Part shown: piece after piece, positions 14,260 through 31,693 of the stretch | Numbering within the stretch: the first letter of the stretch is position 1 | Layout: each line of letters begins with the position of its first letter | Origin: Patescibacteria group bacterium | Lineage (GTDB): Bacteria > Patescibacteriota > Microgenomatia > JACPZF01 | Length of the DNA stretch: 32,200 bases | Assembly: GCA_023484305.1 (NCBI GenBank) | Contig: JAMDAL010000001.1 | Location: forward strand, 1-32,200 | Reading direction: 5' to 3' | Program-made: the position numbers and the translations under genes | The notes under the pieces: model-generated | Seen by the model: only the letters and a program-made list of their open reading frames with translations | Told to the model about the DNA's origin: nothing | Database searches by the model: none

Positions 14260-15465
14260 TTAAACAATTGTTAACCCCGGGTTGGCAGATATTTTCTTCC
14301 AGGAAACAGGGTGATAATTAAAAAATGCGCAGGAAGCAATATAAAAGGCATTGTCATTGCAAAGTTTAGGAGGCGGAATATACAGATAAATTTTAAATTT
14401 TAAATTTTTAATTTTTAATGAATTTTCAATTTCAAATTTTAATTTTTCTCTTAGTCTTTGATTGGCTGCCACTCCGCCACCCAGCAAAATAGTTTTTGGT
14501 TGATAAATTTCTGCAGCCTTAATAACTTTGGCCGTTAAAACATCAGTAATGGCTTCCTGAAGTTCATAGGAAACGGCATTAATTGTTTCATTGTTAAATT
14601 GTTTTATTGCTTTTAATTTTTCTACTTCCCGCATGACGGCCGTTTTTAAACCACTAAATGAAAAGTCTAAATTATCTTCGTTTATCAATGGCCTGGGCAA
14701 TCTAATTGTTGTCTGTTTTCTGTTATCTGTTATCTGTTGTGCCGCTGCGGCAATGGCCGGTCCCCCAAAATAACCATTTAATCCTAAAAGCCTGGCAGAT
14801 TTGTCAAAACATTCTCCGGCCGCATCGTCTCTGGTGCCGCCTAAATATTTTAATTGACCGTGGTTTTTCATTAACACCAAATCTGTGTGTCCGCCGGAAA
14901 CAACCAGACAGAGAGCTGGAAACTGGGGCAGGTTATTATTAATTTTTTCCTCTTTGTCATTCCCGCGAAAGCGGGAATCTATATGATAATTATTTTTATG
15001 GATTCCTGCCTGCGCAGGAACGACATTGGTATTAATCCAGTTGGCATAAATATGGCCGACCAGATGGTTAACCGGGACGATTGGTTTTTTCCAAACCAAG
15101 GCCAGCGTTTTGGCAGTTTCAACCCCGACCAAAAGAGAACCGATTAGGCCGGGACCAACAGTAACAGCAAGAGCGTCAATAGAATTATCGATATTACGAT
15201 ATTTCGATATTGCGATATTAGGCGCTTTTTCCTTATTTTTCCTAATATCATAATATCCTAGTATCCCGGCATTTTTTAAGGCTTCTTCAATCACCGGAAT
15301 AACGCATTTTACCTGTTCTCTGGCTGCTATCTCCGGAATTACCCCGCCGGTTTTTTGATGCAAATCTAGGGAAGAGGCAATAGTCTGAGAAATAATTTTG
15401 GTGCCGTTTTCCACTACGGCCGCAGCTGTTTCGTCACAGGAAGTTTCAAGAGCCAGAATACGCAT
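14260..15465 (-). CDS. tsaD: tRNA N6-threonylcarbamoyltransferase TsaD with in-frame repeat insertions
   Basis: LETSCDET, GPGLIGSL, NHLVGH, VSGGHT, DDAAGECFDK, FSFSGLKT, GGVAAN, DNA. Confidence 0.97.
   Translation of the reverse strand: MRILALETSCDETAAAVVENGTKIISQTIASSLDLHQKTGGVIPEIAAREQVKCVIPVIEEALKNAGILGYYDIRKNKEKAPNIAISKYRNIDNSIDALAVTVGPGLIGSLLVGVETAKTLALVWKKPIVPVNHLVGHIYANWINTNVVPAQAGIHKNNYHIDSRFRGNDKEEKINNNLPQFPALCLVVSGGHTDLVLMKNHGQLKYLGGTRDDAAGECFDKSARLLGLNGYFGGPAIAAAAQQITDNRKQTTIRLPRPLINEDNLDFSFSGLKTAVMREVEKLKAIKQFNNETINAVSYELQEAITDVLTAKVIKAAEIYQPKTILLGGGVAANQRLREKLKFEIENSLKIKNLKFKIYLYIPPPKLCNDNAFYIASCAFFNYHPVSWKKISANPGLTIV
14388..14446. repeat. AT-rich heptamer array inside tsaD (KLKFEIENSLKIKNLKFKI)
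   Basis: AATTTTA-like units; same family as 16063-16200. Confidence 0.75.
14581..14615. repeat. Octamer ATTGTT array inside tsaD (KAIKQFNNETI)
   Basis: ATTGTTTC ATTGTTAA ATTGTTTT ATTGCTTT. Confidence 0.7.
14706..14738. repeat. Heptamer CTGTTWW array inside tsaD (QQITDNRKQTT)
   Basis: CTGTTTT CTGTTAT CTGTTAT CTGTT; 19 bp identical to 18170-18188. Confidence 0.75.
14955..15025. repeat. TGTCATTCC palindromic element inside tsaD (VVPAQAGI...DSRFRGND)
   Basis: TGTCATTCCCGCGAAAGCGGGAATC...GATTCCTGCCTGCGCAGGAACGACA; contains ATTCCC-N8-GGGAAT; relatives at 18021 and 22341. Confidence 0.9.
15190..15266 (-). repeat. GATATT/AATATC bipartite octamer element inside tsaD (ILGYYD...ISKYRNI)
   Basis: 64/77 identical, ungapped, to 21103-21179. 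Confidence 0.9.
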
Positions 15466-15590: not shown

Positions 15591-16057
15591 TAATCTATTC
15601 CCAACAATTTAGTTAGTTCTGTTGTTGACGGCGTTTTAATTCTGGGAATAACTACTAGTTTTGCGCCCACCATTTTTGCCTGTTGTTGTTTTTTTTCTTT
15701 AATAGGATCGTCTTGAGTGGCAGTAATAACATCCGGTTTAACAGTTTTAATTAGGGCAGTGTAGTCGCTATCGCTATTTAGACCGGGTAGTAGCAAAACA
15801 AAATCCACCACGTCCAACCCCGCCAGCATTTCTGCCCGCTCGTTTTGATTGTGTATGGGCCTGTTTATTCCTTTTAAAGTTTTGGTTCTACTGTCAGATT
15901 CCAGGGCCACCAATAAAATATCTCCGGTTTTTTTGGCCTCTTTTAAAAACCGCAAATGGCCAATATGAAGAATATCAAAACAACCACCGCACAACACTAA
16001 CTTACGACCACTCTTTTTAATAAAGTCTAATTGATTTAAAGAAATTATTTTTGACAT
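15590..16057 (-). CDS. Cytidylyltransferase/adenylyltransferase family protein (RfaE domain II/TagD-like)
   Basis: GGCFDILHIGH, KGINRPI, ERAEML, STT. Confidence 0.88.
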   Translation of the reverse strand: MSKIISLNQLDFIKKSGRKLVLCGGCFDILHIGHLRFLKEAKKTGDILLVALESDSRTKTLKGINRPIHNQNERAEMLAGLDVVDFVLLLPGLNSDSDYTALIKTVKPDVITATQDDPIKEKKQQQAKMVGAKLVVIPRIKTPSTTELTKLLGID

Positions 16058-16062
16058 AAGCG

Positions 16063-16200
16063 TTTAATTTTTAATTTACAATTTTAAATTTTAAATGAAT
16101 TTCAAATGTCTGTTTTGCTACGCAAAATTCGCTTGCGAACAATTTTAAAAATTAAATCATTTAGATTTGATTTAAAATTAAAAATTTATAATTTAAAATT
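16063..16200. repeat. AT-rich bipartite heptamer element with nested mini-hairpins
   Basis: AATTTTA arm and TAAAATT arm around TTTTGCTACGCAAAA-TTCGCTTGCGAA. Confidence 0.75.
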
Positions 16201-17689
16201 ACTCTTTTATTCCCCTAAGATATACTGCCTGCCATGGTTGATAGTTGGAATAAAAAGTTTTCTGAAAAATAACCTGGCCGTTTCTTTCCACCTTATAATC
16301 AAAAGAAGCCTTGGCTCCCCAGGCGCTAAAATCAACCTGTTTGATTTCGCCTTTGGGCAAAGCCGGGTCGTCCTGATACAGGTCGGGCGGCGCAGGCGTT
16401 TGGTCCCAGACCACAGGCTTGGTTAAGGTTACATGGCGGTTGTCCTTTTGTCCATAAAGATCAAAGGTGAGCCGGTAGTTGGCGGTGTCGGTTATCGCCT
16501 GAACTAAAATATAATGTCCGGTGTCGTTTTTAATTTTCAAATCGTTGGTCGGGCTGTAAACTGTGGCATCAATTCCGGGCGGGCTGTCCTGTTCGTAGTA
16601 GCCGACGCGGTAAGCATGGGCCCAGCGTTCCACAATCGGCAGGCCGGCGTTAAGGGCAGAGCGAAAAAGGGTGGTGGAAACCTGGCAGACTCCGCCGCCG
16701 TCTCCCAAAATAGTTTTGCCGTCTTTAATAATATACGCCTGTTTATAGCCGGTAAAAGCAGAAATATCTCCAAGCGCCCGGTTAAACGAAAAAGTTTCTC
16801 CGGGAGCAATTAAAACGCCGTTTAAACGCGAAGCGGCCAGAGATATATTGTAAACCCGGTTTTCTATGGAATGATAAAAAGTGGAAGTTCCTGAACCGAT
16901 TAGTTCTTTGATGCCGTAATCGTTGGCGCGATCCGTGGTAATTTCCGGTTTAACCAAATTAACGGTTAAAGGGATATCAATTTCAGTTGGCGTTAAAGAC
17001 AGGGCTGTTAAGCCGTCGGCCTTTTTTCGGAAGGAATTTTCGCTTTCACTTTGATTTAATCTGCGGCCGTTTTTTGAGATTTGGAAGCTGACCACGCGGT
17101 TGTTTTCAAATCGGAATAAAGCGTTTTGCGGGGCGATATTAATTTGTCCGGCCAATAGTGTTAATATTTTTTGCAGTTGGTTTTGGTCATAGGAAACGGA
17201 CAAGGACAGTTGCAAGGGGTTTTTATTGGCAAATAATTTTAAGTATAAATCGGAAAAAAAATTGCCGCTTCTGCCCAACAGATAAGCCTGGTCGGAAAGC
17301 AGTTTTGCGTTATAACCCAAATTTAACTCTGCGGCGCTGGCAGTGGCGGCAAAATTTTCATAGCTGAAAGTAAGACGCAGATTTTTAAATTTATTGTTTT
17401 GGTCTATAAAATATTTTTGAACCTCCTGTGGGCTTTTTCCGCCCAAATCAACTCCGGCAATGGTTATGCCGGGATATACTTTGCCCTGGTATGTTTTTTC
17501 AAACGACAAATAGTAAAACAAAAAAAGAATAAAAAGGCCCAATATACAGCCGGCTAGAAAGAAGAAAACCAAAACACTCAAAGAGGTTTTTGTCTTTTGG
17601 GTTTTATCCTCATATATCAATCCTTCTTTTTCCCGGATAAGGGTTGAGCGCTGATATTTTTTTCGTCGGGGTTTTTTGCTTTTGGCCAT
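16199..17689 (-). CDS. VanW family protein with peptidoglycan-binding (PG_binding_4) region
   Basis: N-terminal TM; YPGITIAGVDLGG, PGETFSFN, GGGVCQVSTTLF, GIDATV; TGnTAAAAT 6 nt before the ATG. Confidence 0.92.
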   Translation of the reverse strand: MAKSKKPRRKKYQRSTLIREKEGLIYEDKTQKTKTSLSVLVFFFLAGCILGLFILFLFYYLSFEKTYQGKVYPGITIAGVDLGGKSPQEVQKYFIDQNNKFKNLRLTFSYENFAATASAAELNLGYNAKLLSDQAYLLGRSGNFFSDLYLKLFANKNPLQLSLSVSYDQNQLQKILTLLAGQINIAPQNALFRFENNRVVSFQISKNGRRLNQSESENSFRKKADGLTALSLTPTEIDIPLTVNLVKPEITTDRANDYGIKELIGSGTSTFYHSIENRVYNISLAASRLNGVLIAPGETFSFNRALGDISAFTGYKQAYIIKDGKTILGDGGGVCQVSTTLFRSALNAGLPIVERWAHAYRVGYYEQDSPPGIDATVYSPTNDLKIKNDTGHYILVQAITDTANYRLTFDLYGQKDNRHVTLTKPVVWDQTPAPPDLYQDDPALPKGEIKQVDFSAWGAKASFDYKVERNGQVIFQKTFYSNYQPWQAVYLRGIKE

Positions 17690-18020: not shown

Positions 18021-18151
18021 TGTCATTCCCGCGCAGGCGGGAATCTATATGAGTATTGTTCGAACAGCGAGAACTTCTCACTTTCTGCCTGTCCGGCAGG
18101 CAGGCGTTCGAAGAATATATTTATGGATTCCCGATTAGACCGGAAATGACA
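18021..18151. repeat. Three-layer nested palindromic element
   Basis: Outer TGTCATTCC..GGAAATGACA; middle TATTGTTCGA..GAGAACTTCTC..TCGAAGAATA (18054-18117); inner CTGCCTGTCCGGCAGGCAGG (18085-18104). Confidence 0.88.
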
Positions 18152-18160
18152 AATGTAAAA

Positions 18161-19489
18161 ATGAAAAAACTGTTTTCTGTTATCTGTTTACTGTTTTCTG
18201 TTTTTCTTCTTTCCGGATGTAATTTGCCGCTGGTGGGGCAGTTGGGCAGTCCGCAAAAAGTTACCCTGCAATATTGGGGCTTGTGGGAACAGCCGCAGGT
18301 TATACAGTCTCTTATTAACGATTATCAAAAGCTTCATCCCAACGTTACCGTAATTTATAAAAAAATGTCGCCGCAAAGCTACAGGGAAACCATTACCGCG
18401 CGTTTGGCCGAAGGCACCGGTCCGGATATTTTCCGCTTTCATAATACCTGGCTGGCGATGTTAAAAAACAATTTGAGTCCGGTGCCAAGTTCGGTAATGA
18501 GCGCGGCCCAAATGGACAGCAGTTTTTATCCCGTGGTGAAAAAAGATTTAAAAATCGGCAGCCAGTATTACGGCCTGCCTTTGGAAATTGATACTTTGGG
18601 GCTTTACATTAATACGGACATCTTAAATGCCGCCGGGGAAAAACCGCCGGCAACCTGGGAGGATTTTAAAAATTTGGCGCAAAAACTGACAGTCAAGGAC
18701 GCCGGCGGAAAAATTCTGACCGCCGGCGCGGCAATAGGTACAACCAATAATGTGGAACACTGGAGCGATATTTTAGGATTAATGATGCTGCAAAACGGTA
18801 CGGATATGAATAAAGTCGGCGCCACAGTTTTATCCGACGGCAGCAATGCCGGAGTTGACGCCTTAAATTATTATGTTTCCTTTGCCAAGGGCGACAGCCG
18901 GGTTTGGGACGATACGCTGGATAACTCCATGAATGCTTTTGCTTCCGGGAAAACCGCGATGTTTTTCGGTCCTTCCTGGGAAGCCTTTGATATTAAAACG
19001 CTTAATCCTTCCGTTAATTTTGAAGTGGTGCCGGTGCCGCAGCTTTCCGGAACCAATATCACCTGGGCCACATACTGGGTGGAAGGCGTTGCCCGGCGCA
19101 GCAAAAACCAGCAGGCTGCCTGGGATTTTCTTAAATTTTTATCCTCACAGGAAGAACTGAAAAAGTTTTACAGTCTGTCTTCAAATCTGCGGCTGTTTGG
19201 AGAACCCTATCCTTATATCAGCATGGCGTCTTTAATAAACAGCGATCCTATTGCCGGAGCTTTTGTCAAACAAGCCCCAAATGCCACATCCTGGTATTTG
19301 GCCTCGCGCACTTTTGATAACGGTTTAAACGACAAAATGATTGCCTATTTTGCCGATGCGGTTAACGGAGTTTATAAAGAGACAACTACGGCCAAAAGCG
19401 CCCTGGAAACCGCGGAAAAAGGGGTTAATGCTCTCTTGGTTCAGTATGGTCTAAGCTCCGGTAATGCCGGACAAGCTCCGAGCCAATAA
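18161..19489 (+). CDS. Extracellular solute-binding lipoprotein (sugar ABC, family 1)
   Basis: Start reassigned to MKKLFSV...LLSGC (lipobox); GPDIF, YGLPL, PPATWEDF, AWDFLKFL. Confidence 0.9.
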   Translation: MKKLFSVICLLFSVFLLSGCNLPLVGQLGSPQKVTLQYWGLWEQPQVIQSLINDYQKLHPNVTVIYKKMSPQSYRETITARLAEGTGPDIFRFHNTWLAMLKNNLSPVPSSVMSAAQMDSSFYPVVKKDLKIGSQYYGLPLEIDTLGLYINTDILNAAGEKPPATWEDFKNLAQKLTVKDAGGKILTAGAAIGTTNNVEHWSDILGLMMLQNGTDMNKVGATVLSDGSNAGVDALNYYVSFAKGDSRVWDDTLDNSMNAFASGKTAMFFGPSWEAFDIKTLNPSVNFEVVPVPQLSGTNITWATYWVEGVARRSKNQQAAWDFLKFLSSQEELKKFYSLSSNLRLFGEPYPYISMASLINSDPIAGAFVKQAPNATSWYLASRTFDNGLNDKMIAYFADAVNGVYKETTTAKSALETAEKGVNALLVQYGLSSGNAGQAPSQ

Positions 19490-20441
19490 TAACAAGAATA
19501 GATGCCAGAGGTACGGCAAAAATCGATCCCCAGACTCCGGCGACTTTTAAGCCGACCAAAAAAGACAAAAGGACCACCACAGGATGAATGCGCATAGCCC
19601 TGCCCCAAAGCTTGGTAGCCAAAATATTAAGTTCCACCTGCTGAATAATAAAAATAACAAAAGTCAGCCATAAGGCCGAAGGCAGCCCGAGCGTTAAACC
19701 GGCGATAAAAGGCGGCAAAAGGCCCAAAAGAGGGCCAATTATCGGGATAACTGTCAGTACCGCAGAAAGAAAGCCGGCCACCAGGGCAAAGGAGGGCACA
19801 AAAATCTGCAAAAATATAAAAACAATCAGCCCGAAAATAATTCCCAAAACCACCTGAACCCTGATAAATCCGGCAAAAGTGTTGTCAATAACGCCCCGGA
19901 AATACTCAACCTCTTTATGGTAATTGTTTGGTACAAGAAGCAAAAACCACTGCCAGATTTTTTGTTTGTCCAAAAGAAGATAAAAAGATAAAAATAAAAT
20001 AAAGAAAAAATAAAAAAGGAAAGATGCCACCCTGCCGGCAATGGTCACAGAATTTTCCAGAACCGAAAAACTGACGTCCAGAATTCTGTTGGCCCAGCCC
20101 GGAATGTAGCGGTTAAAAGTGGGAGCCAGCGTAAGCAAATTGTTGATCTGGGCCACAATAATTGGCACGGCTAAAATAAACAGCCCAACAATAAAAACCG
20201 TAAAAACACCGTATATAACAAAAGCAGCGCCAAGACGGGAAACCCCCATTTTGATTAAACGCTCCAAAAGCGGTTCAAACAAAAAAGAAATAAGCCAGGA
20301 TAAAAGCAGGACCAGAATAATGTCAGAAAAAAGATAAAGAAACTTTAAAACATAACTGGCCAAAAACAGGGCCGCAACAACAGAAAGCATAATAGAGAGA
20401 AGACGCAGAGAACCGATTTGGTCAGATAAATTTTTAAACAT
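19425..20441 (-). CDS. AI-2E (UPF0118) family transporter
   Basis: Multi-TM; IPIIGP, QQVELNIL, IHPVVVL, GSIFAVP; start at ATG 20441. Confidence 0.9.
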   Translation of the reverse strand: MFKNLSDQIGSLRLLSIMLSVVAALFLASYVLKFLYLFSDIILVLLLSWLISFLFEPLLERLIKMGVSRLGAAFVIYGVFTVFIVGLFILAVPIIVAQINNLLTLAPTFNRYIPGWANRILDVSFSVLENSVTIAGRVASFLFYFFFILFLSFYLLLDKQKIWQWFLLLVPNNYHKEVEYFRGVIDNTFAGFIRVQVVLGIIFGLIVFIFLQIFVPSFALVAGFLSAVLTVIPIIGPLLGLLPPFIAGLTLGLPSALWLTFVIFIIQQVELNILATKLWGRAMRIHPVVVLLSFLVGLKVAGVWGSIFAVPLASILVIIGSELVRHYRSLDHTEPREH

Positions 20442-20448
20442 ACAACTT

Positions 20449-20458
20449 ATGCTATCAT
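20449..20458. promoter_or_regulatory. Overlapping back-to-back -10 hexamers
   Basis: TAGCAT (minus) and TATCAT (plus), each 7 nt before a divergent ATG. Confidence 0.6.
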
Positions 20459-20465
20459 ACGGATA

Positions 20466-21347
20466 ATGAAAATAACAAGCTCGCAAATTCTGGCAATTTT
20501 ATACGCGGATATTTTTGATTATCCGTTAAAAAAGGATGAGTTAGAAAGGTGGCAGATAAAAGATAGGTATAAAAATTATAATGATTATAACAATTATAAA
20601 GTTTATACTTATAAGAACGGTTATTTCTGCCCTTACGGCCGAGAAAAAATCATTAATCTTCGTCAGCAAAGAAAAAAATATTCACAGCAGAAAATTCATC
20701 TGGCAAAAAAAACTGTCCAACTCTTACAAAAAATTCCTTTTATAAAACTGGTTGCCATTACCGGTGCCTTATCTATGTATAACAGTCCGCAGGAGGACGA
20801 CATAGATTTATTAATTGTGACGGAAAAAAACCGTTTATGGATTTCCCGATTTTTAGTTTCCATTTTCTTAGATGTGTTAGGAAAAAGAAGAAGGCCAAAA
20901 GATACAAACTTTCAGGACAAAATTTGTCTAAATATGTTTTTAGAAGAATCAAAGCTGCAAATTCCCCGGAGAGAACAAAATTTATACACAGCCCACGAGG
21001 TTTGCCAGATTATGCCAATTTACAACAAACTGCAGACGTATGAAAAGTTTCTGTCGGCAAATAAATGGACGAAGAAGTATTTACCAAACGGAGTCGACAA
21101 TAGGATATTAGGATATTATGATACCAGGCGAAATAAAGATAAATCACGTATTATCGTAATATCGAAATATCATAATATCATCTTAGATTTTCTTGAATAC
21201 ACAGCCTATAAACTGCAGTATATTTATATGAAATCCAGAATGACCAGGGAAACAGTGGAAAGAAAAAGGGCATTCTTCCATCCTCTGGACAGAACCAATT
21301 GGGTTTTAAAAGAATTCAATAAGCGATTAAAAGAGATTAATTGGTAA
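20466..21347 (+). CDS. Nucleotidyltransferase-domain protein (pol-beta-like), with repeat insertions
   Basis: YADIFDYPL; ITGALS...DDIDLLIV; KICLNMF; LYTAHEV; terminal FFHP. Confidence 0.75.
   Translation: MKITSSQILAILYADIFDYPLKKDELERWQIKDRYKNYNDYNNYKVYTYKNGYFCPYGREKIINLRQQRKKYSQQKIHLAKKTVQLLQKIPFIKLVAITGALSMYNSPQEDDIDLLIVTEKNRLWISRFLVSIFLDVLGKRRRPKDTNFQDKICLNMFLEESKLQIPRREQNLYTAHEVCQIMPIYNKLQTYEKFLSANKWTKKYLPNGVDNRILGYYDTRRNKDKSRIIVISKYHNIILDFLEYTAYKLQYIYMKSRMTRETVERKRAFFHPLDRTNWVLKEFNKRLKEINW
20568..20614. repeat. Nonamer TTATAA array inside CDS (YKNYNDYNNYKVYTYK)
   Basis: TATAA recurring at 9-bp period. Confidence 0.65.
21103..21179 (+). repeat. GATATT/AATATC element, copy 2 (ILGYYD...ISKYHNI)
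   Basis: 64/77 identical to the tsaD copy. Confidence 0.9.
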
Positions 21348-22323
21348 ACTCCTGGGCAAACATTTCGCCGTAGATGCCGCCATTAATAACTCCAATTCCC
21401 ACCTTGCCAAACTCCGGATTTAAAATGTTGGCGCGGTGCCCGGGGCTGTTCATCAGTCCGGTATCGGCAATATCCACGCCGGGCGCATAGGCCAGATTTT
21501 CCCCGGCCGCCTCAAAACTGATACCGGCATTTTTCATCCGGTCAAAAGGAGACAGGCCTTCGGGCGTATAGTGGGAAAAATAACCGCGATTAAACATATC
21601 TTTGTCGTGCGCCCGGGCCAGATTTTGCAATTTAGCGTCTAAAACCAGGGGTTTTATGCCGCGGCTAACCCTTTGTTGGTTAACATAGTTAAACATCGTT
21701 TGTTCCGCGGCCGAATCAGGACTGTAATTGGCGGTGGTAAAATGCAGGTTGATGTTTTCGCTGCCCTGCGGGTTAACCGTTAAAAAGTTCAGAGTGTCGT
21801 TTACCGCGCCGCCAAAAATATTATTTAAGGTCTGTTCCAGCCTTTGCGTTTTATCAACCAGGGGTTTTCCCAGCCTTGAAGATTCAATGCCGGCTTTAAC
21901 AACAGGAGAAATAGGCAGGGAAATTAAAAGGGTTAAGAAAAATGCCAAAACGATAAGTCCGTTTAAAAAAGAGGGGATAAAACCCAGGAGCCTGTTGCCC
22001 GGATAAAGCAGGATGTTTTTGGGCAGTTTTTCCAAAAGCAGCTGGCTTAAAAAGGCCAGGATAACTTCGGATAGAAAGCCGGCCAGCAAAAATCCCAGGG
22101 CGTCGGCAATGCCCTTGGTCAGTGAGAAATTTCCCACCAGCAGATAGGAAAGCAGGCCGTAGGACTTAAGGGCCAGAAAAAACGAGCCGCCAAACACCAG
22201 AAGTTCCAGAAATCCAGACAGAAAACCGCGCCCGATTCCGTCCACGACAAACCACAAGAGAACCAGTATTATAATAAGGTCCACCCAGTTGCCGTGAAGA
22301 AGAGGAAGGTTAGGTGGTAACAT
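21337..22323 (-). CDS. CvpA (colicin V production-like) plus CAP/SCP domain fusion protein
   Basis: NWVDLII..GIGRGF, NRLLG; C-terminal ARAH..DM...YFSH, GENLA, MNSPGHRANIL, GIG. Confidence 0.9.
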   Translation of the reverse strand: MLPPNLPLLHGNWVDLIIILVLLWFVVDGIGRGFLSGFLELLVFGGSFFLALKSYGLLSYLLVGNFSLTKGIADALGFLLAGFLSEVILAFLSQLLLEKLPKNILLYPGNRLLGFIPSFLNGLIVLAFFLTLLISLPISPVVKAGIESSRLGKPLVDKTQRLEQTLNNIFGGAVNDTLNFLTVNPQGSENINLHFTTANYSPDSAAEQTMFNYVNQQRVSRGIKPLVLDAKLQNLARAHDKDMFNRGYFSHYTPEGLSPFDRMKNAGISFEAAGENLAYAPGVDIADTGLMNSPGHRANILNPEFGKVGIGVINGGIYGEMFAQEFTN

Positions 22324-22340
22324 AAATTATATTTTTACCT

Positions 22341-22459
22341 TGTCATTCCCGGCCAGGAGGGAATCTATGTTATTGTTCGAACCGCCAACTGGCGGTGAGA
22401 ACTTCTCGCCTTGGGCTCGAAGAATATTGGTATAGATTCCTGCCTTCGCAGGAATGACA
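22341..22459. repeat. Three-layer nested palindromic element
   Basis: Outer TGTCATTCC..GGAATGACA; middle 22371-22426; inner ACCGCCAACTGGCGGT (22381-22396). Confidence 0.88.
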
Positions 22460-22524
22460 GGATGTGTCTTGTTAAACAGTATACCATACTATAACAGTTT
22501 AAGTTTAATTCTGCTGGTGGTAAA

Positions 22525-24843
22525 ATGGCGGATAATATGGAAAATCAAAAATCAAAAATCAAAAATCAAAATAGAAATTATTCTTCGAACGAAGCGAGAA
22601 GTTCTCGGCCCTTGGCCTCGAACAATAATTTATCGTTTTTACGCAAGTTAAACTCGTTTTTCCTTTTTGCCAGTAACAAACAAATTAGCGTTACTGTTGG
22701 CGTAATATTTTTGTTTTTAGTGGCCAGCTTTTACTGGTTTATCTTAAAAGATTTGCCCTTTCCCACCCAGCTTACCAGCCAAACCCCTTCCCAGACCACC
22801 AAAATTTTTGACAGGCACGGGGCACTTCTTTATGAAATTTATGTCAACCAGAACCGGACCATTGTTCCCCTGTCGCAAATCCCTCTTTATTTAAGAGAAG
22901 CCACAATTTCCATTGAAGATAAGGATTTTTACCGTCACGGCGGCATTAACGTGGTTAACGGCATGCTTCGGGCCGTTAAGGCGATGGTGATTAACCGGCA
23001 GGGCTTGCAGGGGGGATCAACGATTACGCAGCAACTGGTTAAAACTTCGCTTTTAACCCCGGAGCGGACAATTATCCGGAAAATAAAAGAAGTCGTTCTG
23101 GCAGTTATCACCGATAAAATTTATAGTAAAGACCAGATTTTGGCTATGTATTTAAACAGAGTGCCATACGGCGGTACGGCCTGGGGGGTAGAAGCCGCCA
23201 GCGAAAAATATTTTAATAAAAAAGTCAGCCAGCTGGGTTTGGCAGAGAGTAGTATGCTGGCCGGACTTCCGGCCGCGCCGACACTTTATTCGCCTCTGGG
23301 CAGCCACCCGGAATTGGCCAAAAAACGCCAGGCGGAAGTTTTGGGGCGCATGAGGGAAGACGGTTATATTACCCGCCAGCAGGAAGAAGAGGCAGAAAAA
23401 GAAATTCTGCACTACAACTTAAACAGCCAGCAAATTAAGGCGCCTCATTTTGTGATGTATGTCAAAGATTTGCTGGAGAAAAAATACGGAGAAAATTTGG
23501 TGGAGCGGGGCGGACTTCAGGTGACCACCACCTTGGATTTGCCCATTCAAAATTTTGCCCAGCAAACCGTGGCCAGCGAAGTGGCAAAGTTAAAAACCCT
23601 GGACGTTGGTAACGGCGCGGCCCTGGTGACAGAACCGGCAACCGGAGAAATTTTAGCCATGGTGGGCTCAAGGAATTATTTTGACACCACTCACGACGGC
23701 AATGTTAATGTCACTTTGGCCTTAAGACAACCGGGCTCTTCTATTAAACCGGTTAATTATGCGCTGGGGCTTCTCAAAGGAGCCACGCCGGCGACCCTTT
23801 TTATTGATGAACCAACCTGTTTTGCCAATATTGCCGGACAAAAACCCTATTGTCCTGTTAATTATGACGGCAAATTTCATGGCCCGGTGCAGCTGCGGTT
23901 TGCCCTGGGCAACTCCATTAATATTCCGGCTGTCAAAATGCTGGCCGAAAACGGAGTACACAGCATGGTGGCAACGGCTTCGGCTATGGGGATTAGTACC
24001 TGGACTGATGAAAGCCGTTTTGGTTTATCACTAACTTTGGGAGGGGCAGAAGTGCGTATGACCGATATGGCTACAGTTTACGGCGTTTTTGCCAACGCCG
24101 GGGCCAGGGTTGACCTTAACCCGGTCTTAAAAGTGGTGGACAGTTCGGGCAGGGTTTTGGAAGAAAATAAACAGGCTTACAGCTGGGACAAGAAACAAAC
24201 CCATTCGCTTTTGGATATTAACGGCAAAAGAGTTTTACCCTGGGATGTCACCTATTTAATTTCCCACATTCTTTTGGATAATAACGCCCGGTCGATGGAG
24301 TTTGGAGACAACAGCCCCCTGCGCGTTTCAGGGCACAGCGCTGTTTCTGTCAAAACCGGCACCACTGACGATAAGCGGGATAACTGGACCATCGGGTACA
24401 CCCCTTCCTATGTCGTGGCAGTTTGGGTTGGCAACAATGACAATACGCCGATGAATCCGTATTTGTCATCCGGTATTACCGGGGCAGCGCCTATTTGGAA
24501 TAAGATTATGACCTATTTGCTAAAAGATTCCAAAGACCAGTGGCCCTTAATGCCGTCTGATATTGTTGGTATGCAGATTTGCAGCCTGTCGGGGAAGTTG
24601 CCCGGAGACACCGGGTGTCCCGCGCGTTTTGAATATTTTATCAAAGGCACAGAACCAACCCAGGTTGACGATAGCAGAAAGAATGTTTTAGTTGATAAAA
24701 CCACAGGAGGATTGGCCAAACCCGGACAGACGGATAACGTGGAAGAGCAAATGCACACCGTGGTCAAAGACGCTTTTACCGGCTTTTGTGTGGACTGTAG
24801 CTCCACCAGTTCTTCAACTTTGGTGACAACGTGGAAGTTCTAG
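22525..24843 (+). CDS. Class A penicillin-binding protein (PBP1A type); true start may be 22537
   Basis: EDKDFYRH, GGSTITQQLVK, RKIKE, QPGSSIKP, NSIN, KTGT; TGGTAAAAT at 22518-22526 overlaps the first ATG. Confidence 0.96.
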   Translation: MADNMENQKSKIKNQNRNYSSNEARSSRPLASNNNLSFLRKLNSFFLFASNKQISVTVGVIFLFLVASFYWFILKDLPFPTQLTSQTPSQTTKIFDRHGALLYEIYVNQNRTIVPLSQIPLYLREATISIEDKDFYRHGGINVVNGMLRAVKAMVINRQGLQGGSTITQQLVKTSLLTPERTIIRKIKEVVLAVITDKIYSKDQILAMYLNRVPYGGTAWGVEAASEKYFNKKVSQLGLAESSMLAGLPAAPTLYSPLGSHPELAKKRQAEVLGRMREDGYITRQQEEEAEKEILHYNLNSQQIKAPHFVMYVKDLLEKKYGENLVERGGLQVTTTLDLPIQNFAQQTVASEVAKLKTLDVGNGAALVTEPATGEILAMVGSRNYFDTTHDGNVNVTLALRQPGSSIKPVNYALGLLKGATPATLFIDEPTCFANIAGQKPYCPVNYDGKFHGPVQLRFALGNSINIPAVKMLAENGVHSMVATASAMGISTWTDESRFGLSLTLGGAEVRMTDMATVYGVFANAGARVDLNPVLKVVDSSGRVLEENKQAYSWDKKQTHSLLDINGKRVLPWDVTYLISHILLDNNARSMEFGDNSPLRVSGHSAVSVKTGTTDDKRDNWTIGYTPSYVVAVWVGNNDNTPMNPYLSSGITGAAPIWNKIMTYLLKDSKDQWPLMPSDIVGMQICSLSGKLPGDTGCPARFEYFIKGTEPTQVDDSRKNVLVDKTTGGLAKPGQTDNVEEQMHTVVKDAFTGFCVDCSSTSSSTLVTTWKF
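22541..22628. repeat. (AAAATCA)4 array plus free-standing TCGA/GAGAA element in the PBP N-terminus
   Basis: Four perfect heptamers at 22541-22568; 22578-22628 (51 bp) is the reverse complement of the middle layer of the nested elements. Confidence 0.85.
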
Positions 24844-27631: not shown

Positions 27632-27714
27632 ACACAGATTTAAACGGATGCAAAACTGATTTAAGCAGATATTTTTCTGTTTACATCTGCTTTTAATCCG
27701 CTTATATCTGTGTG
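27632..27714 (-). repeat. ACAGAT/ATCTG bipartite element, copy 1
   Basis: Reverse complement is 78/83 identical to 28888-28970. Confidence 0.92.
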
Positions 27715-27720
27715 AAAAAT

Positions 27721-28929
27721 ATGTTAAAAGGAACTAAATTAAAAGATTATCCTCATGCCCAAAAAAGACGGTTGTTTCTAGAGAAAACTTTGGGTATCAA
27801 CTTGTCTGGTTTGGGAGAATTTTCCTTTGCCGAGGATGCTGTTCGTAACAAAAATATTGAAAATTTAGTGGGAGCCACACAAATACCCATGGGTGTGGCA
27901 GGACCAATTCTTGTTAACGGTCAGTTTGCCAGAGGGGAGTTTTATTTACCTTTAGCCACAACAGAAGGGGCCTTGGTGGCTTCGGTTTCCCGCGGGTGCA
28001 AGGCAATTAGTCGGTCTGGCGGAGTAACAGTGTTAGTAGAAAATGTTGGTACTACCCGCGCCCCGGTTTTTCAGACCAAGGGAATTTCAGAAAGCAAAAA
28101 ATTAATTAAGTGGGTAGAAAATAATTTTTCCGCATTACAAAAGGTGGCAGAAAATTCTTCGTCACACCTTAAACTTTTAAACTTTAAACCATATTTTATG
28201 GGAAGAAACGTGTGGTTAAGACTTAACTTTGACACCGCTGATGCGATGGGTATGAATATGGCGACAACAGCTGCCACTCTAATAATACGTATTATCGAAG
28301 TAAAAACAGGATGCAAATGCGTTTCCGTATCCGGCAACTTAGATGTTGATAAAAAACCCAGCTGGATAAATTTTTTGGAAGGAAGAGGCAAAAAAGTTTG
28401 GGCAGAAGCTGTGATTTCTAGAGAAATAGCGCAGGAGGTTTTAAAAACCACTCCGGACAAGATGGTTGAAACAAGCAGGGCCAAAGTTTTATATGGTTCA
28501 ATTTTGTCCGGCTCTTTAGGTTTTAACAGTCACTTTGCCAACATTATTGCCGCCTTATTTGCCGCCACCGGTCAGGATTTGGCCCATATTACTGAAGGAA
28601 GTTTAGGCGTGACTACGACTGAAATTTCAGACAAAGATTTATATATCAGCATTTACTTGCCGGACTTAATGATAGGTACGGTGGGCGGGGGTACCGGCCT
28701 TCCTGCGCAAAAAGAAGCCCTGTCTTTGTTAAAAATACCAGATCCTTCTTTAAAAAGCGGTCAACAGGTTTTAAAACTGGCGGAAATTATTGGCTCTGCG
28801 GTTTTAGCAGGAGAGTTGTCCTTATTGGGTGCGCTTGCAGCAGGCCAGTTAGCCAGTGCACATGAAAAACTTGGTAGAGGCAGGATGCACACAGATATAA
28901 GCGGATTAAAAGCAGATGTAAACAGATAA
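27721..28929 (+). CDS. hmgA: HMG-CoA reductase, class I (NADPH)
   Basis: ENLVG, LATTEGALVAS, DAMGMN, GQDLAH, GTVGGGT, catalytic His in HEKLGR. Confidence 0.96.
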   Translation: MLKGTKLKDYPHAQKRRLFLEKTLGINLSGLGEFSFAEDAVRNKNIENLVGATQIPMGVAGPILVNGQFARGEFYLPLATTEGALVASVSRGCKAISRSGGVTVLVENVGTTRAPVFQTKGISESKKLIKWVENNFSALQKVAENSSSHLKLLNFKPYFMGRNVWLRLNFDTADAMGMNMATTAATLIIRIIEVKTGCKCVSVSGNLDVDKKPSWINFLEGRGKKVWAEAVISREIAQEVLKTTPDKMVETSRAKVLYGSILSGSLGFNSHFANIIAALFAATGQDLAHITEGSLGVTTTEISDKDLYISIYLPDLMIGTVGGGTGLPAQKEALSLLKIPDPSLKSGQQVLKLAEIIGSAVLAGELSLLGALAAGQLASAHEKLGRGRMHTDISGLKADVNR

Positions 28930-28970
28930 ATACCTGCTTAAATCAGTTTGTCATCTGTTTAAATCTGTGT
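28888..28970 (+). repeat. ACAGAT/ATCTG bipartite element, copy 2
   Basis: Overlaps the hmgA 3' end and supplies its stop codon. Confidence 0.92.
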
Positions 28971-30088: not shown

Positions 30089-31240
30089 ATGGCGATTACT
30101 GTTTTAGGCGCTTCTACCACTAATTTTGGTGAACTCTGGAATCAGAGTTTGCGCGATTTAATTAGAGAAGCCAGCCTCTTAGCCCTAAAAGATGCCAATT
30201 TAAGCCCCAAGGATGTGGAAGCGGTTTTTGTTGGCAATATGCTGTCAGGAATTTTAGGCAGTCAGGAACAATTAGGGCCGGTGGTAACAGAAGAGTTGGG
30301 CATAAATGTTTCTGCCACAAGGGTGGAGGCGGCTTGCGCCTCAGGGGGGCTGGCAATTTATGAAGCAGTTAACAGTTTATTGTCCCAAAGATTTACAACA
30401 GTTTTGGTCGTAGGCGCGGAAAAAATGACGGATAAACCAGCGGAAAAAATCACCAGCAGTTTAATGGCAGCCGGTTCTGATGCCGAAAGACAGGCCGGAG
30501 CGACTTTTCCCAGTTTGTATGCGCTTTTGGCCAAAGCGCATATGGAAAAATACGGGACCAGCGAAGAAGAAATGGCAGCCGTGGCAGTTAAAAATCACTA
30601 CCATGCTTCCTTAAACGGCCAGGCGCAGTTTCGCTTTTCCATTACCATAGAACAAGTTTTAAAAAGCACAAAAATTTGTGACCCCTTAAAACTTCTGGAC
30701 TGTTCGCCGATTACCGATGGGGCAGCAGCAGTGGTACTTACGTCAGAAAACAGTAAACAAAAAACAGTAAACAGGCATGTTTACATTAATGCTTGTGAGA
30801 CTGCAACCGATACTCTGGGTCTGGCGCAAAGAGAAAGTTTGACAGAGTTAAAAGCGACCAAACTGGCAGCAGAAAAGGCTTATAAAAAGGCCGGTGTCAC
30901 ACCCAAGGATATTGATGTGGCAGAACTTCATGACTGTTTTACTATTGCCGAGATTATGGCAGTTGAGGATTTAGGATTTTTTAAAAAAGGCGAAGCCGGA
31001 AAAAAATTTTTACAAGGAGAAACCAAATTGGGAAGCAAAGGCTTAATCACTAACACATCAGGGGGGCTCAAGGCCTGCGGGCATCCGGTGGGAGCAACCG
31101 GCATTAAACAAATTGCCGAGATTACCAAGCAGCTTAGGGGCAAAGCAGAGAAAAAACAAGTGGAAAATGCCAAGGTTGGGCTGTGTCAAAATGTAGGAGG
31201 GTCCGGCGCGACAGCAGTAGTTACTATTTTAACAAATTAA
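30089..31240 (+). CDS. Acetyl-CoA acetyltransferase (archaeal/SCP2-type thiolase)
   Basis: VEAACASGG, CSPITDGAAA, ELHDCF, SGGLKACGHPVGATG, NVGGSG. Confidence 0.95.
   Translation: MAITVLGASTTNFGELWNQSLRDLIREASLLALKDANLSPKDVEAVFVGNMLSGILGSQEQLGPVVTEELGINVSATRVEAACASGGLAIYEAVNSLLSQRFTTVLVVGAEKMTDKPAEKITSSLMAAGSDAERQAGATFPSLYALLAKAHMEKYGTSEEEMAAVAVKNHYHASLNGQAQFRFSITIEQVLKSTKICDPLKLLDCSPITDGAAAVVLTSENSKQKTVNRHVYINACETATDTLGLAQRESLTELKATKLAAEKAYKKAGVTPKDIDVAELHDCFTIAEIMAVEDLGFFKKGEAGKKFLQGETKLGSKGLITNTSGGLKACGHPVGATGIKQIAEITKQLRGKAEKKQVENAKVGLCQNVGGSGATAVVTILTN
30744..30774. repeat. Heptamer AACAG array inside thiolase (SENSKQKTVNR)
   Basis: CAGAAAA CAGTAAA CAAAAAA CAGTAAA CAG; same family as 14706 and 18170. 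Confidence 0.65.
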
Positions 31241-31366: not shown

Positions 31367-31693
31367 ATGACTAGTCCAATAAAAATCTGGAGAGAACAGA
31401 AAAAAATTAAAAACTTTTTAGGTTTAAAAGGAAAAGTCGTCAGTGCGACTTTGGTGCGCGTGCCTCCTTTGGGATTTTCTAATCAGGCGCCGTATTTTGT
31501 GGCGATTGTGGATATGGAAAACCCAGCCAAAGGCGGGCAAGGCAAGCAACGGCTAATTGGCCAAATGGTGGATGTGTTTGAAACCGAAATAAAAACCGGG
31601 CAAAAAGTGGAAGTAGTTTACCGCAAATTGGCAGAGACAGACAAAGAAGACGTCATTCATTACGGTATAAAATTCAGACCAACCTCACCCTAA
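31367..31693 (+). CDS. DUF35 OB-fold protein lacking the zinc ribbon
   Basis: WR...GKVVS.T...PP.GF..APY.VAIVD...GQMVD...G.KV..VYRK...YGIKFRP; no cysteines; follows HMGS and thiolase. Confidence 0.88.
   Translation: MTSPIKIWREQKKIKNFLGLKGKVVSATLVRVPPLGFSNQAPYFVAIVDMENPAKGGQGKQRLIGQMVDVFETEIKTGQKVEVVYRKLAETDKEDVIHYGIKFRPTSP

Follow-up and report, generated by a model that had tools for sequence, protein, structure and literature searches.

We analyzed a 32,200-nucleotide (nt) stretch of DNA from a Patescibacteria group bacterium (assembly GCA_023484305.1, contig JAMDAL010000001.1, positions 1 to 32,200), called the window throughout, in which two composite palindromes, at 18021-18151 and 22341-22459, each hold three hairpin layers nested inside one another, namely an outer shell (S), a middle unit (M), and an inner hairpin (I). 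We read the composites, with a probability of roughly 0.7, as mosaics of three unrelated families of non-autonomous hairpin elements, the two larger layers of which are remnants of GIY-YIG nuclease cassettes that have lost their gene. Gene-bearing versions of both larger layers exist in other genomes, each layer also occurs alone, and the layers are distributed independently of one another, both inside this genome and from one genome to the next. The window is contig C33 of a genome (G000) of 723,085 bases in 54 contigs with 40% G+C; the assembly is incomplete (estimated 83% complete), and this applies to every count and every negative result reported below for this genome.

Two three-layer composites in the window

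The features on which the analysis rests are as follows.

18021-18151, no strand assigned: three-layer composite S::M::I1 (read directly, with the repeat census and a fold as single-stranded DNA (ssDNA))
18021-18045, plus strand: left shell hairpin TGTCATTCCCGCGCAGGCGGGAATC, an NTS/SRM-like, CGTC/TGTC-tagged repetitive extragenic palindromic (REP) sequence (26 of 28 positions agree with the NTS consensus)
18054-18117, minus strand: middle unit M of the short-loop type, core 18056-18115, with TA on both sides (direct reading and M census)
18084-18104, no strand assigned: inner hairpin I1, a 21-nt GC palindrome of the GGACAGG variant at the tip of one M arm (I1 search)
18127-18151, minus strand: right shell hairpin (ATTCCCGATTAGACCGGAAATGACA) (direct reading and unit search)
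22341-22459, no strand assigned: three-layer composite S::M::I3, with a shell as in 18021-18151 (direct reading, census, and ssDNA fold)
22371-22426, minus strand: middle unit M within the second shell, core 22373-22424 (direct reading and M census)
22382-22395, no strand assigned: inner hairpin I3, CCGCCAACTGGCGG, on the M arm opposite to that holding I1 in the first composite (I3 search)
14955-15025, no strand assigned: empty shell S, two inverted TGTC-tagged hairpins around a 23-nt AT spacer (left half agrees with the NTS consensus at 26 of 28 positions)
22578-22628, plus strand: unit M outside any shell (free), core 22581-22625, read as NYSSNEARSSRPLASNNN within the N-terminal tail of PBP1A
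31523-31543, plus strand: 21-nt lineage-specific in-frame insertion encoding PAKGGQG in a DUF35/OB_ChsH2_C gene, a weak palindrome

The first composite consists, in order, of TGTCATTCCCGCGCAGGCGGGAATC, a short AT stretch, M (which reads TTCTTCGAAC...TCGAACAA on the minus strand of 18054-18117), and a right hairpin ending in GGAAATGACA; the start codon of a solute-binding lipoprotein gene (Pfam SBP_bac_8) lies 10 nt past its end. The second occupies the divergent spacer between a CvpA/CAP-domain gene on the minus strand and the PBP1A gene on the plus strand. When folded as ssDNA, the two composites gave -31.7 kcal/mol (z -6.4) and -30.5 kcal/mol (z -6.65), respectively, and in neither case did any of 200 shuffles equal the value. 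At the gathering score, Rfam returned no match in the window.

Direct reading agrees with the original prediction, made from the letters of the window, that the two composites share an outer shell and a middle layer and that their innermost hairpins differ, I1 and I3 being located on opposite arms of M. The cargo-free shell that had been placed in tsaD is present at 14955-15025, where it is in frame and encodes residues missing from seven aligned orthologues, and the middle layer said to stand alone in PBP1A was found at codons 19-35 of that frame. The fifth element, a degenerate inner-type unit in the DUF35 gene, held up in part: the 7-residue insertion is real, as it is missing from all four aligned orthologues, but its hairpin is weak (z -1.0, with 33 of 200 shuffles equal or better). 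A relation of the insertion to the inner hairpins is suggested by its resemblance to CCGCCAAAGGCGG, which is one inner-hairpin copy in reverse complement, and it is possibly a decayed hairpin of that type.

Census of the layers in the genome

The shell hairpin pattern matched 35 times in the 723-kb genome and not once in the reversed control, which indicates that the hairpin did not arise by chance. A search for hairpin units gave 95 units of the window type, 73 of them plain units of 23-24 nt and the others with enlarged loops; seven were judged false by eye and removed. The 88 units kept make up 23 clean head-to-head doublets, of which 10 are empty, 8 hold M, and 5 hold other cargo, including other GTCAT-tagged hairpins. 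For M, 64 candidate end pairs were reduced to 54 copies by removing those longer than 100 nt, those without the GAGAAG/TTCTC core, and overlapping duplicates. The copies are palindromes of 41-63 nt and fall into short-loop, long-loop, and duplicated-loop subtypes; 40 are free of shells, and the 14 nested ones lie in clean S doublets (8 copies), beside one clean shell half (4 copies), or between decayed halves (2 copies, a reading by eye). The tip of the right arm of M is 6, 10, or 16 nt long and shows the compensatory pairs GCC:GGC, GTC:GAC, ACC:GGT, GCT:AGC, and GTT:AAC.

The inner hairpin I1, CCTGCCTGCCGG(A)CAGGCAGG, had 20 matches in the whole genome at up to 3 edits. Seven are in S loops, five in one arm of M, two in a longer shell-type element, two in an unrelated ATTGG-rich repeat, and four elsewhere; all five M-hosted copies are the same GGACAGG variant at the same position. 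Comparison of filled with empty loops in four pairs revealed a clean insert of 19-21 nt without target duplication, with the insertion points (marked ^) CCCGTTTA^CACGGG, CCTGATTA^GATCAGG, and TTCGAACG^AAGTGAGAAG. Hairpins resembling I3 (CCGCC-N3-7-GGCGG) matched 16 times: loops of another REP type and arms of M hold 4 each, other repeats hold 2, and 6 are free, at least one of these resembling a terminator. On contig C27, an unrelated REP has the window's exact I3 14-mer in its loop. A third inner type, I2, is a hairpin of 27-33 nt, and all six copies sit in S loops at one site of one loop type. The contexts of I1, of I3, and of the decayed shells were assigned by reading the printed flanks.

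A second abundant tagged REP, CGTCATTCTGGCTTGTCCAGAATC, was also seen in the genome. It forms doublets of its own (C26 6884-6949 and C28 530-584), its partner hairpin holds nested GC hairpins, and it is read as ..SGQARMT.. in an 806-residue open reading frame (ORF) on C5.

The shell is an NTS-type repeat and brackets a GIY-YIG gene in a relative

In 21 units of the genome, including those of the window at 14955 and 18021, 26 of 28 positions agree with the 28-nt NTS consensus CGTCATTCCCGCGMAVGCGGGAATCYRG, the mismatches always being the first and the last base, and the reversed control gave none; these units also contain the NTS palindromic core ATTCCC-N8-GGGAAT. NTS is described as a 28-nt extension of dRS3 (Chenal et al. 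2025, PMC11893778). The CGTC REPs are defined by a CGTC/TGTC tag, an 8-9-bp stem starting with AT, a 4-5-nt loop, a CCA-like tail, and a mostly head-to-head arrangement in dimers, and CGTC-1 is equated with Neisseria dRS3 and with Rickettsia RPE-6 and RPE-4 (Di Nocera et al. 2013, PMC3733652). The S units have the tag, a stem of 8-9 bp from AT, a loop of 4-5 nt in the 73 plain units, and head-to-head dimers, and their tails are CCA or CTA. We conclude from its sequence that the shell belongs to the NTS/SRM-type repeats, the same kind as dRS3 and the CGTC-1 REPs.

In the NTS system, a 94-residue single-domain GIY-YIG protein, SsnA, binds and cuts NTS solely as ssDNA, and the NTS-ssnA-NTS layout has been compared with insertion sequences (PMC11893778). 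Seven GIY-YIG matches were detected in our genome, two of which, on contigs C8 and C52, are Ssn-like proteins of 108 and 95 residues; here, the label Ssn-like rests on size and the Pfam GIY-YIG match, the proteins being set beside SsnA/cd10448 by description. Both genes are flanked by variant GTCAT-tagged hairpins, and the C52 gene lies within a longer shell-type doublet, the junctions of which are preserved in gene-less look-alikes elsewhere. The two proteins are 52% identical to a protein of G023, a genome of another family in the same class, in which a 110-residue Ssn-like gene has TGTCATTCCCGCGAAAGCGGGAATCCAG 41 nt upstream and an inverted variant of it 19 nt downstream (locus L073). Judged by these flanks, the G023 cassette is a shell of the window's kind in which a gene forms the cargo. 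A similar Ssn-like cassette with variant hairpins is found in G042 (locus L063).

Thirty GIY-YIG loci yielded nine small frames that passed our ORF filter, two with shell-type flanks and seven, of other GIY-YIG types, without. When the G023 protein was used as a query, 7994 of 8000 scored candidates matched at E 1e-8, with most of the matches listed being 94-111 residues long; those with names were GIY-YIG nuclease family proteins, some from Candidatus Doudnabacteria and Staskawiczbacteria. NCBIfam offered no informative name for the small GIY-YIG nucleases, and the PDB yielded only distant matches to UPF0213 proteins.

The middle unit probably derives from a second GIY-YIG cassette

In the genome G083, 21 distinct M copies were recovered from 30 loci examined, and none adjoins a shell. 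One of them has 263 nt between its arms, which encode a GIY-YIG domain (Pfam E 2.4e-11). Comparison of this protein with species-representative genomes gave 12 loci, 10 of them 60-100% identical, under titles naming Candidatus Curtissbacteria, Daviesbacteria, Levybacteria, 'Patescibacteria group', and, in two records, Gammaproteobacteria. In a pattern search, 5 of the 10 homologous loci (L128-L132) had the gene enclosed by both arms, TTCTTCGAAC..GAGAAG on the left and TTCTC..TCGAACAA on the right, and in 3 further loci GAGAAG...TTCTC was seen by eye, one right arm having an I1-like palindrome. Aligned over 72 residues, the M-type nuclease shares 32% identity with the S-type (E 4e-10), and the best matches to the M-type protein in our genome are the two Ssn-like genes (38-42% identity). 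The long-loop M of our genome preserves the junctions of the gene-bearing form, GAGAAGT.. on the left and ..ATAGTTCTC, which includes the stop codon, on the right. Because its arms flank a GIY-YIG gene elsewhere and the miniature preserves the junctions, the most fitting reading of M is a second GIY-YIG cassette reduced to its two arms, apparently joined by loss of the gene. A search of our genome for gene-bearing M returned only a tandem pair, and a search for genes between I1 half-sites returned only coincidental pairs.

At six G083 loci (L100, L111, L114, L120, L121, and L126), the tip of the right arm of M holds a different palindrome of 23-26 nt (GGAGAGTA..TACTCTCC). TACG stands on either side of it, possibly as a duplicated target of 4 bp.

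The layers assort independently and are nested more often than expected

The original prediction held that the layers are independent elements, and would have been refuted by layers that never assort independently. Within our genome, 10 of the 23 clean shells are empty, 40 of the 54 M copies lie outside shells, and at least five kinds of site hold I1. When 150 further genomes of the class were examined, the S pattern was found in 24 (23 matches in G042, 17 in G070, 9 in G023, and 8 in G136; the reversed control gave none in any genome) and the M pattern in 16 (26 matches in G083 and 5 each in G042 and G148), so that 17 genomes have S only, 9 have M only, and 7 have both. The I1 20-mer, exact or with up to 2 changes, is present at 10 places in G083 and 8 in G042, which belong to other families, and was not found in the shell-bearing genomes G070, G023, and G136. 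Six of the copies in G083 and G042 were viewed: one is in a shell loop, one in the loop of another hairpin, one in a heptamer run, and three are in DNA that does not look like a repeat. The independence of the layers is therefore borne out.

Nested and free copies were then tabulated, as had been proposed. Taking TA dinucleotides as the possible sites, 0.18 of the 54 M copies would be expected in shell spacers, whereas 14 are located there, an enrichment of about 80-fold (P about 6e-23), and the excess persists when only four separate events are assumed (P about 3e-5). The distance between a nested copy and the shell hairpins varies, being 8-22 nt on the left side and 9-16 nt on the right, M is found in either orientation relative to the shell, and the short-loop, long-loop, and duplicated-loop subtypes are all represented. 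For 7 of the 14, the nearest neighbor in sequence is a free copy, in one case an identical one. The varying offsets, the two orientations, the nesting of all subtypes, and the free nearest neighbors indicate several separate entries of M into shells. For the other 7, the nearest neighbor is itself nested, where 3.4 would be expected (P 0.06), which makes it likely that some composites have also spread as units. With regard to the claim that the elements preferentially target each other's hairpins, nesting is indeed far above random, but these counts do not separate active targeting from tolerance, spread as units, or gene conversion. The further claim, of a hierarchy of hyperparasites, is not supported in any strict form: I1 occupies shell loops directly, in addition to its sites in M, other shell-type hairpins lie inside shell spacers, and I2 was never seen free. 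The layers form a network.

Copies inside genes

The empty shell of the window lies in tsaD (ORF 14260-15465, minus strand) and encodes VVPAQAGIHKNNYHIDSRFRGNDK. TsaD is present in all 12 relatives, and the shell is an in-frame insertion because the seven orthologues that were aligned lack the 24-27 residues that it encodes. It corresponds to TsaD residues of about 150-174; residues of about 69-93 come from another repeat and are likewise missing from the seven orthologues. Of the 54 M copies, 21 lie in frames that remain open for 40 codons or more in each direction; the length is divisible by three in 18 of these 21. Most in-frame copies, including that of PBP1A, read YSS(N/S)E(A/V)RSSR..SNN(N/K), and in PBP1A no alternative start codon occurs between M and the membrane helix. 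The gene for the formyltransferase Fmt on C5 contains two M copies that G001 and G002 lack; the net difference in the alignment is 12 residues in a variable loop, so the ends of M are imprecise there. A complete three-layer nest is in frame in the 806-residue membrane protein on C5. In-frame palindromic repeats absent from orthologues were thus recorded for TsaD, Fmt, the 806-residue protein, and the set of 21 M copies.

Other repeats were noted in or beside the same genes. Runs of AAATCAA / CAAAAGT heptamers often adjoin M copies, and the run at 22539-22569 is translated directly before M in the PBP1A tail as ENQKSKIKNQN. The second repeat of tsaD is a 77-nt repeat at 15190-15266, in frame and 83% complementary to 21103-21179, which lies in an ORF without a Pfam match (20466-21347); a third copy is on contig C14. 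Repeats of an AT-rich type (AATTTTAAATTTTTAAT) are present at 14384-14430, near the 3' end of tsaD, and at 16056-16210, the former being read as LKFEIENSLKIKNLKFKI, which is extra compared with most orthologues. The relatives hold insertions of their own, different ones, at the same TsaD and Fmt loops; the TsaD of G002 has a 45-residue insert, and peptides in the TsaD of G009 (..GARNDG..) and the Fmt of G008 (..PAQAG..) resemble translated shell-type hairpins. Heptamer runs of the CTGTTTT / CTGTTTA / CTGTTAT type occur genome-wide and, in the window, at 18170-18209, 14713-14738, and 30744-30774, the first of which encodes the hydrophobic core of the lipoprotein signal peptide MKKLFSVICLLFSVFLLSGC. 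Finally, 83-nt inverted repeats of CAGAT-type heptamers (27632-27714 and 28888-28970, 94% complementary) bracket a whole HMG-CoA reductase gene (27712-28929; Pfam E 7.6e-121).

Proposed origin of the composites

We propose that the full-length shell is a pair of hairpins bracketing a single-domain Ssn-like GIY-YIG gene of roughly 95-110 residues, loss of which would leave an AT spacer of about 20 nt. In the same manner, deletion of the gene from the second cassette would bring the left arm TTCTTCGAAC..GAGAAG and the right arm TTCTC..TCGAACAA together into one palindrome of 41-63 nt. The inner units would be GC hairpins of 14-21 nt that settle at hairpin tips and in loops, presumably without target duplication, as in the four pairs compared. 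Each family would spread on its own, most likely through enzymes that recognize hairpins in ssDNA; Ssn-like nucleases acting in trans are the leading candidates, with Y1 HUH transposases second. Copies may accumulate in each other's loops and spacers as these would be single-stranded when folded and harmless to the host to disrupt, and within genes only copies that keep the frame would survive. The assignment of an enzyme to the movement of the repeats, like the choice between targeting and tolerance as the cause of nesting, is an inference. The cassette origin of the two larger layers goes beyond the original prediction, which spoke of independent elements.

Several observations weigh against this proposal. 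What is reported of Ssn is that it cuts ssDNA and lowers transformation; movement of DNA is not among the activities shown for it (PMC11893778). The shell hairpins are inverted, with just one in the cleavable orientation on each strand, and excision by two cuts on the same strand therefore does not follow. In our assembly, no gene was found inside a shell of exactly the window type, the gene for the M-type nuclease was not found either, and no enzyme is tied to these repeats. The gene between the M arms in G083 has one in-frame TGA where its relatives have TGG, and has probably decayed, and in 5 of the 10 homologous loci the pattern search gave only one arm or loose matches. As for the inner layer, the flanks of the I1 insertion sites have no common motif, I2 is only ever found in shell loops, and the I3-like hairpins could have arisen from M itself, as variants of its variable arm tip.

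A bolder version, which we regard as a long shot, is that Ssn-like GIY-YIG nucleases drive a whole community of hairpin elements in Patescibacteria: nicked ssDNA hairpins would trigger copying of the nucleases' own cassettes, of the miniatures without a gene, and of even smaller hairpins into exposed loops of other elements, the nests would represent parasitism of element on element, and the same mechanism would multiply dRS3, CGTC REPs, and the Rickettsia palindromic elements.

Alternative explanations

Nesting need not reflect any preference of the elements. In a compact genome of 0.7 Mb, insertion might occur nearly anywhere, with survival only in junk or in permissive loops, an account to which we give somewhat less than an even chance. 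It fits the finding that insertions at a given protein loop differ from genome to genome (TsaD in G002 and G009, Fmt in G003 and G008), the in-frame bias of M within genes (18 of 21), and the lack of a common target motif around I1. However, with 21 of 54 M copies in long open frames, insertions outside repeats are clearly tolerated; the inner hairpins also occupy the same structural spot, a loop or an arm tip, in unrelated hosts, and nesting exceeds the expectation over TA sites by the factor given above. Alternatively, the nests may have formed once or a few times and then multiplied as units or by gene conversion between shells, and the layers would at present not be independent. The shared GGACAGG variant and position of the five M-hosted I1 copies, the single site of all six I2 copies, and the seven nested M copies with nested neighbors are what such a history would leave, but the M backbones that bear I1 differ in loop and arm types, M varies in offset and orientation within shells, one nested M is identical to a free copy, and the layers separate between genomes. 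We consider it unlikely to be the general explanation. It is similarly doubtful that the inner hairpins are no elements at all and arose by local growth or variation of the host's tip hairpin, for example by template switching in palindromes. The differing length of the right-arm tip of M (6, 10, or 16 nt, the pairs changing in a compensatory way) and the absence of free I2 would be explained in this way; the exact I1 20-mer, in contrast, recurs at several kinds of site, namely shell loops, arms of M, two further repeat families, and DNA outside repeats, as well as in two genomes of other families, and an identical I3 14-mer is shared by M and an unrelated REP loop.

Insertion of the IS200/IS605 type produces no target duplication, a property shared by the I1 insertions, and the repeats could be REP doublets moved by the genome's own RAYT-like Y1 (HUH) transposases, as in REPIN/RAYT systems. 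The shell has REPIN geometry, and the genome has five Y1_Tnp matches in 723 kb, four of them above the Pfam cut-off and four in complete frames of 211-235 residues; one was compared with NCBIfam and scored 54.6 bits to REP_Tyr_transpos, which is short of the cut-off of 80. Yet three of the four complete RAYT-like genes are bracketed by low-copy hairpins of their own (6, 2, and 4 matches), the flanks of all four lack S, M, and I1, and none of 12 RAYT-like genes in five relatives is flanked by these repeats, the lone shell-motif match lying inside a coding frame. CGTC REPs, too, are described as not associated with tyrosine transposase genes (PMC3733652), and we think this explanation quite improbable. 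The five Y1_Tnp matches are on C18, C23, C50, C25, and C12; the Y1 gene on C23 adjoins a small GIY-YIG gene and a tRNA, the 5' part of which seems duplicated. Very improbable, in our view, is that the composites are functional structured RNAs or regulatory sites, such as terminators or attenuators, and not selfish DNA: they have strong predicted folds and positions in the 5' regions of genes, but the window has no Rfam family at the gathering score, copies are found in both orientations and inside coding frames, and their make-up is variable. We also considered a classical miniature inverted-repeat element of a DDE transposase and rejected it, as I1 has no target duplication in the four filled and empty pairs. 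The TA on both sides of M is ambiguous as a target duplication, and DDE_3 (PF13358), DDE_Tnp_1 (PF01609), and IS110 (PF01548) had no match in the assembly.

Relation to known repeats

The repeat kind of the shell, dRS3 around other repeats, in-frame palindromes, and tiny hairpins within repeats are all already known. Our literature search found no paper on these repeats in Patescibacteria, on the M family or its cassette, or on three-layer nests. The main text of PMC11893778 does not mention Patescibacteria, and its supplements and those of PMC3733652 may list such genomes. For two decades, the CGTC REPs, dRS3, and some Rickettsia palindromic elements have lacked a mobilizing enzyme, and the Ssn work of 2025 linked these repeats to a single-strand nuclease, leaving their route of multiplication open (PMC11893778). 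Here, two related GIY-YIG cassettes are accompanied by abundant miniatures that keep their junctions, are nested in one another, and stand in frame in essential genes. Such a pattern would be expected if the cassettes were mobile and spawned non-autonomous copies, and it provides concrete pairs of enzyme and substrate. It also means that ultra-small and supposedly streamlined genomes bear dense selfish hairpin DNA that lengthens their proteins.

Neisseria genomes contain intergenic mosaic elements in which RS repeats are flanked by dRS3. The composites resemble these in having dRS3-type hairpins around other repeat families, but ours are single doublets with one cargo, some of them in coding frames, whereas those are long intergenic arrays. 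Rickettsia palindromic elements were reportedly found by Ogata et al. in 2000 to be inserted in frame in essential genes and translated. In-frame, translated palindromic repeats in essential genes are common to both cases; the differences are the phylum, the nesting of three families, and the identification here of gene-bearing parents. Small dispersed hairpin repeats of cyanobacteria, about 20-27 nt long, are said to have been described by Elhai et al. in 2008 as inserted precisely in other repeats. Insertion of I1 inside repeats is like this, the likeness being one of description, whereas the hosts of I1 here are remnants of nuclease cassettes. Tiny cyanobacterial hairpin repeats inserted in other repeats also appear in PMC4390886.

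REPINs share with the shell two inverted hairpin repeats that, together with their spacer, form a long hairpin, with many spacer lengths (Bertels and Rainey 2011, PMC3337134); unlike in REPIN/RAYT systems, no RAYT-like gene is flanked by the repeats studied here. The CGTC-1 REPs, for which five phyla are listed, agree with the S units in tag, stem, AT start, loop, tail, head-to-head dimers, and location of some copies inside genes, and likewise flank no tyrosine transposase; dRS3 flanking other repeats and REP dimers inside other palindromes are described as well (PMC3733652). They differ in that no dedicated enzyme was found for them in that work, whereas a GIY-YIG gene lies between the repeats both here and in PMC11893778. 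The closest comparison is with NTS/Ssn (PMC11893778): the shell hairpin agrees with the NTS consensus at 26 of 28 positions and is oriented by its 5' GTC tag, and in the relative G023 the inverted repeats surround a small single-domain GIY-YIG gene. What sets the present elements apart from NTS/Ssn is their host, a member of the Patescibacteria, their occurrence mostly as gene-less doublets that often have other repeats inside, and the translation of some copies in frame.

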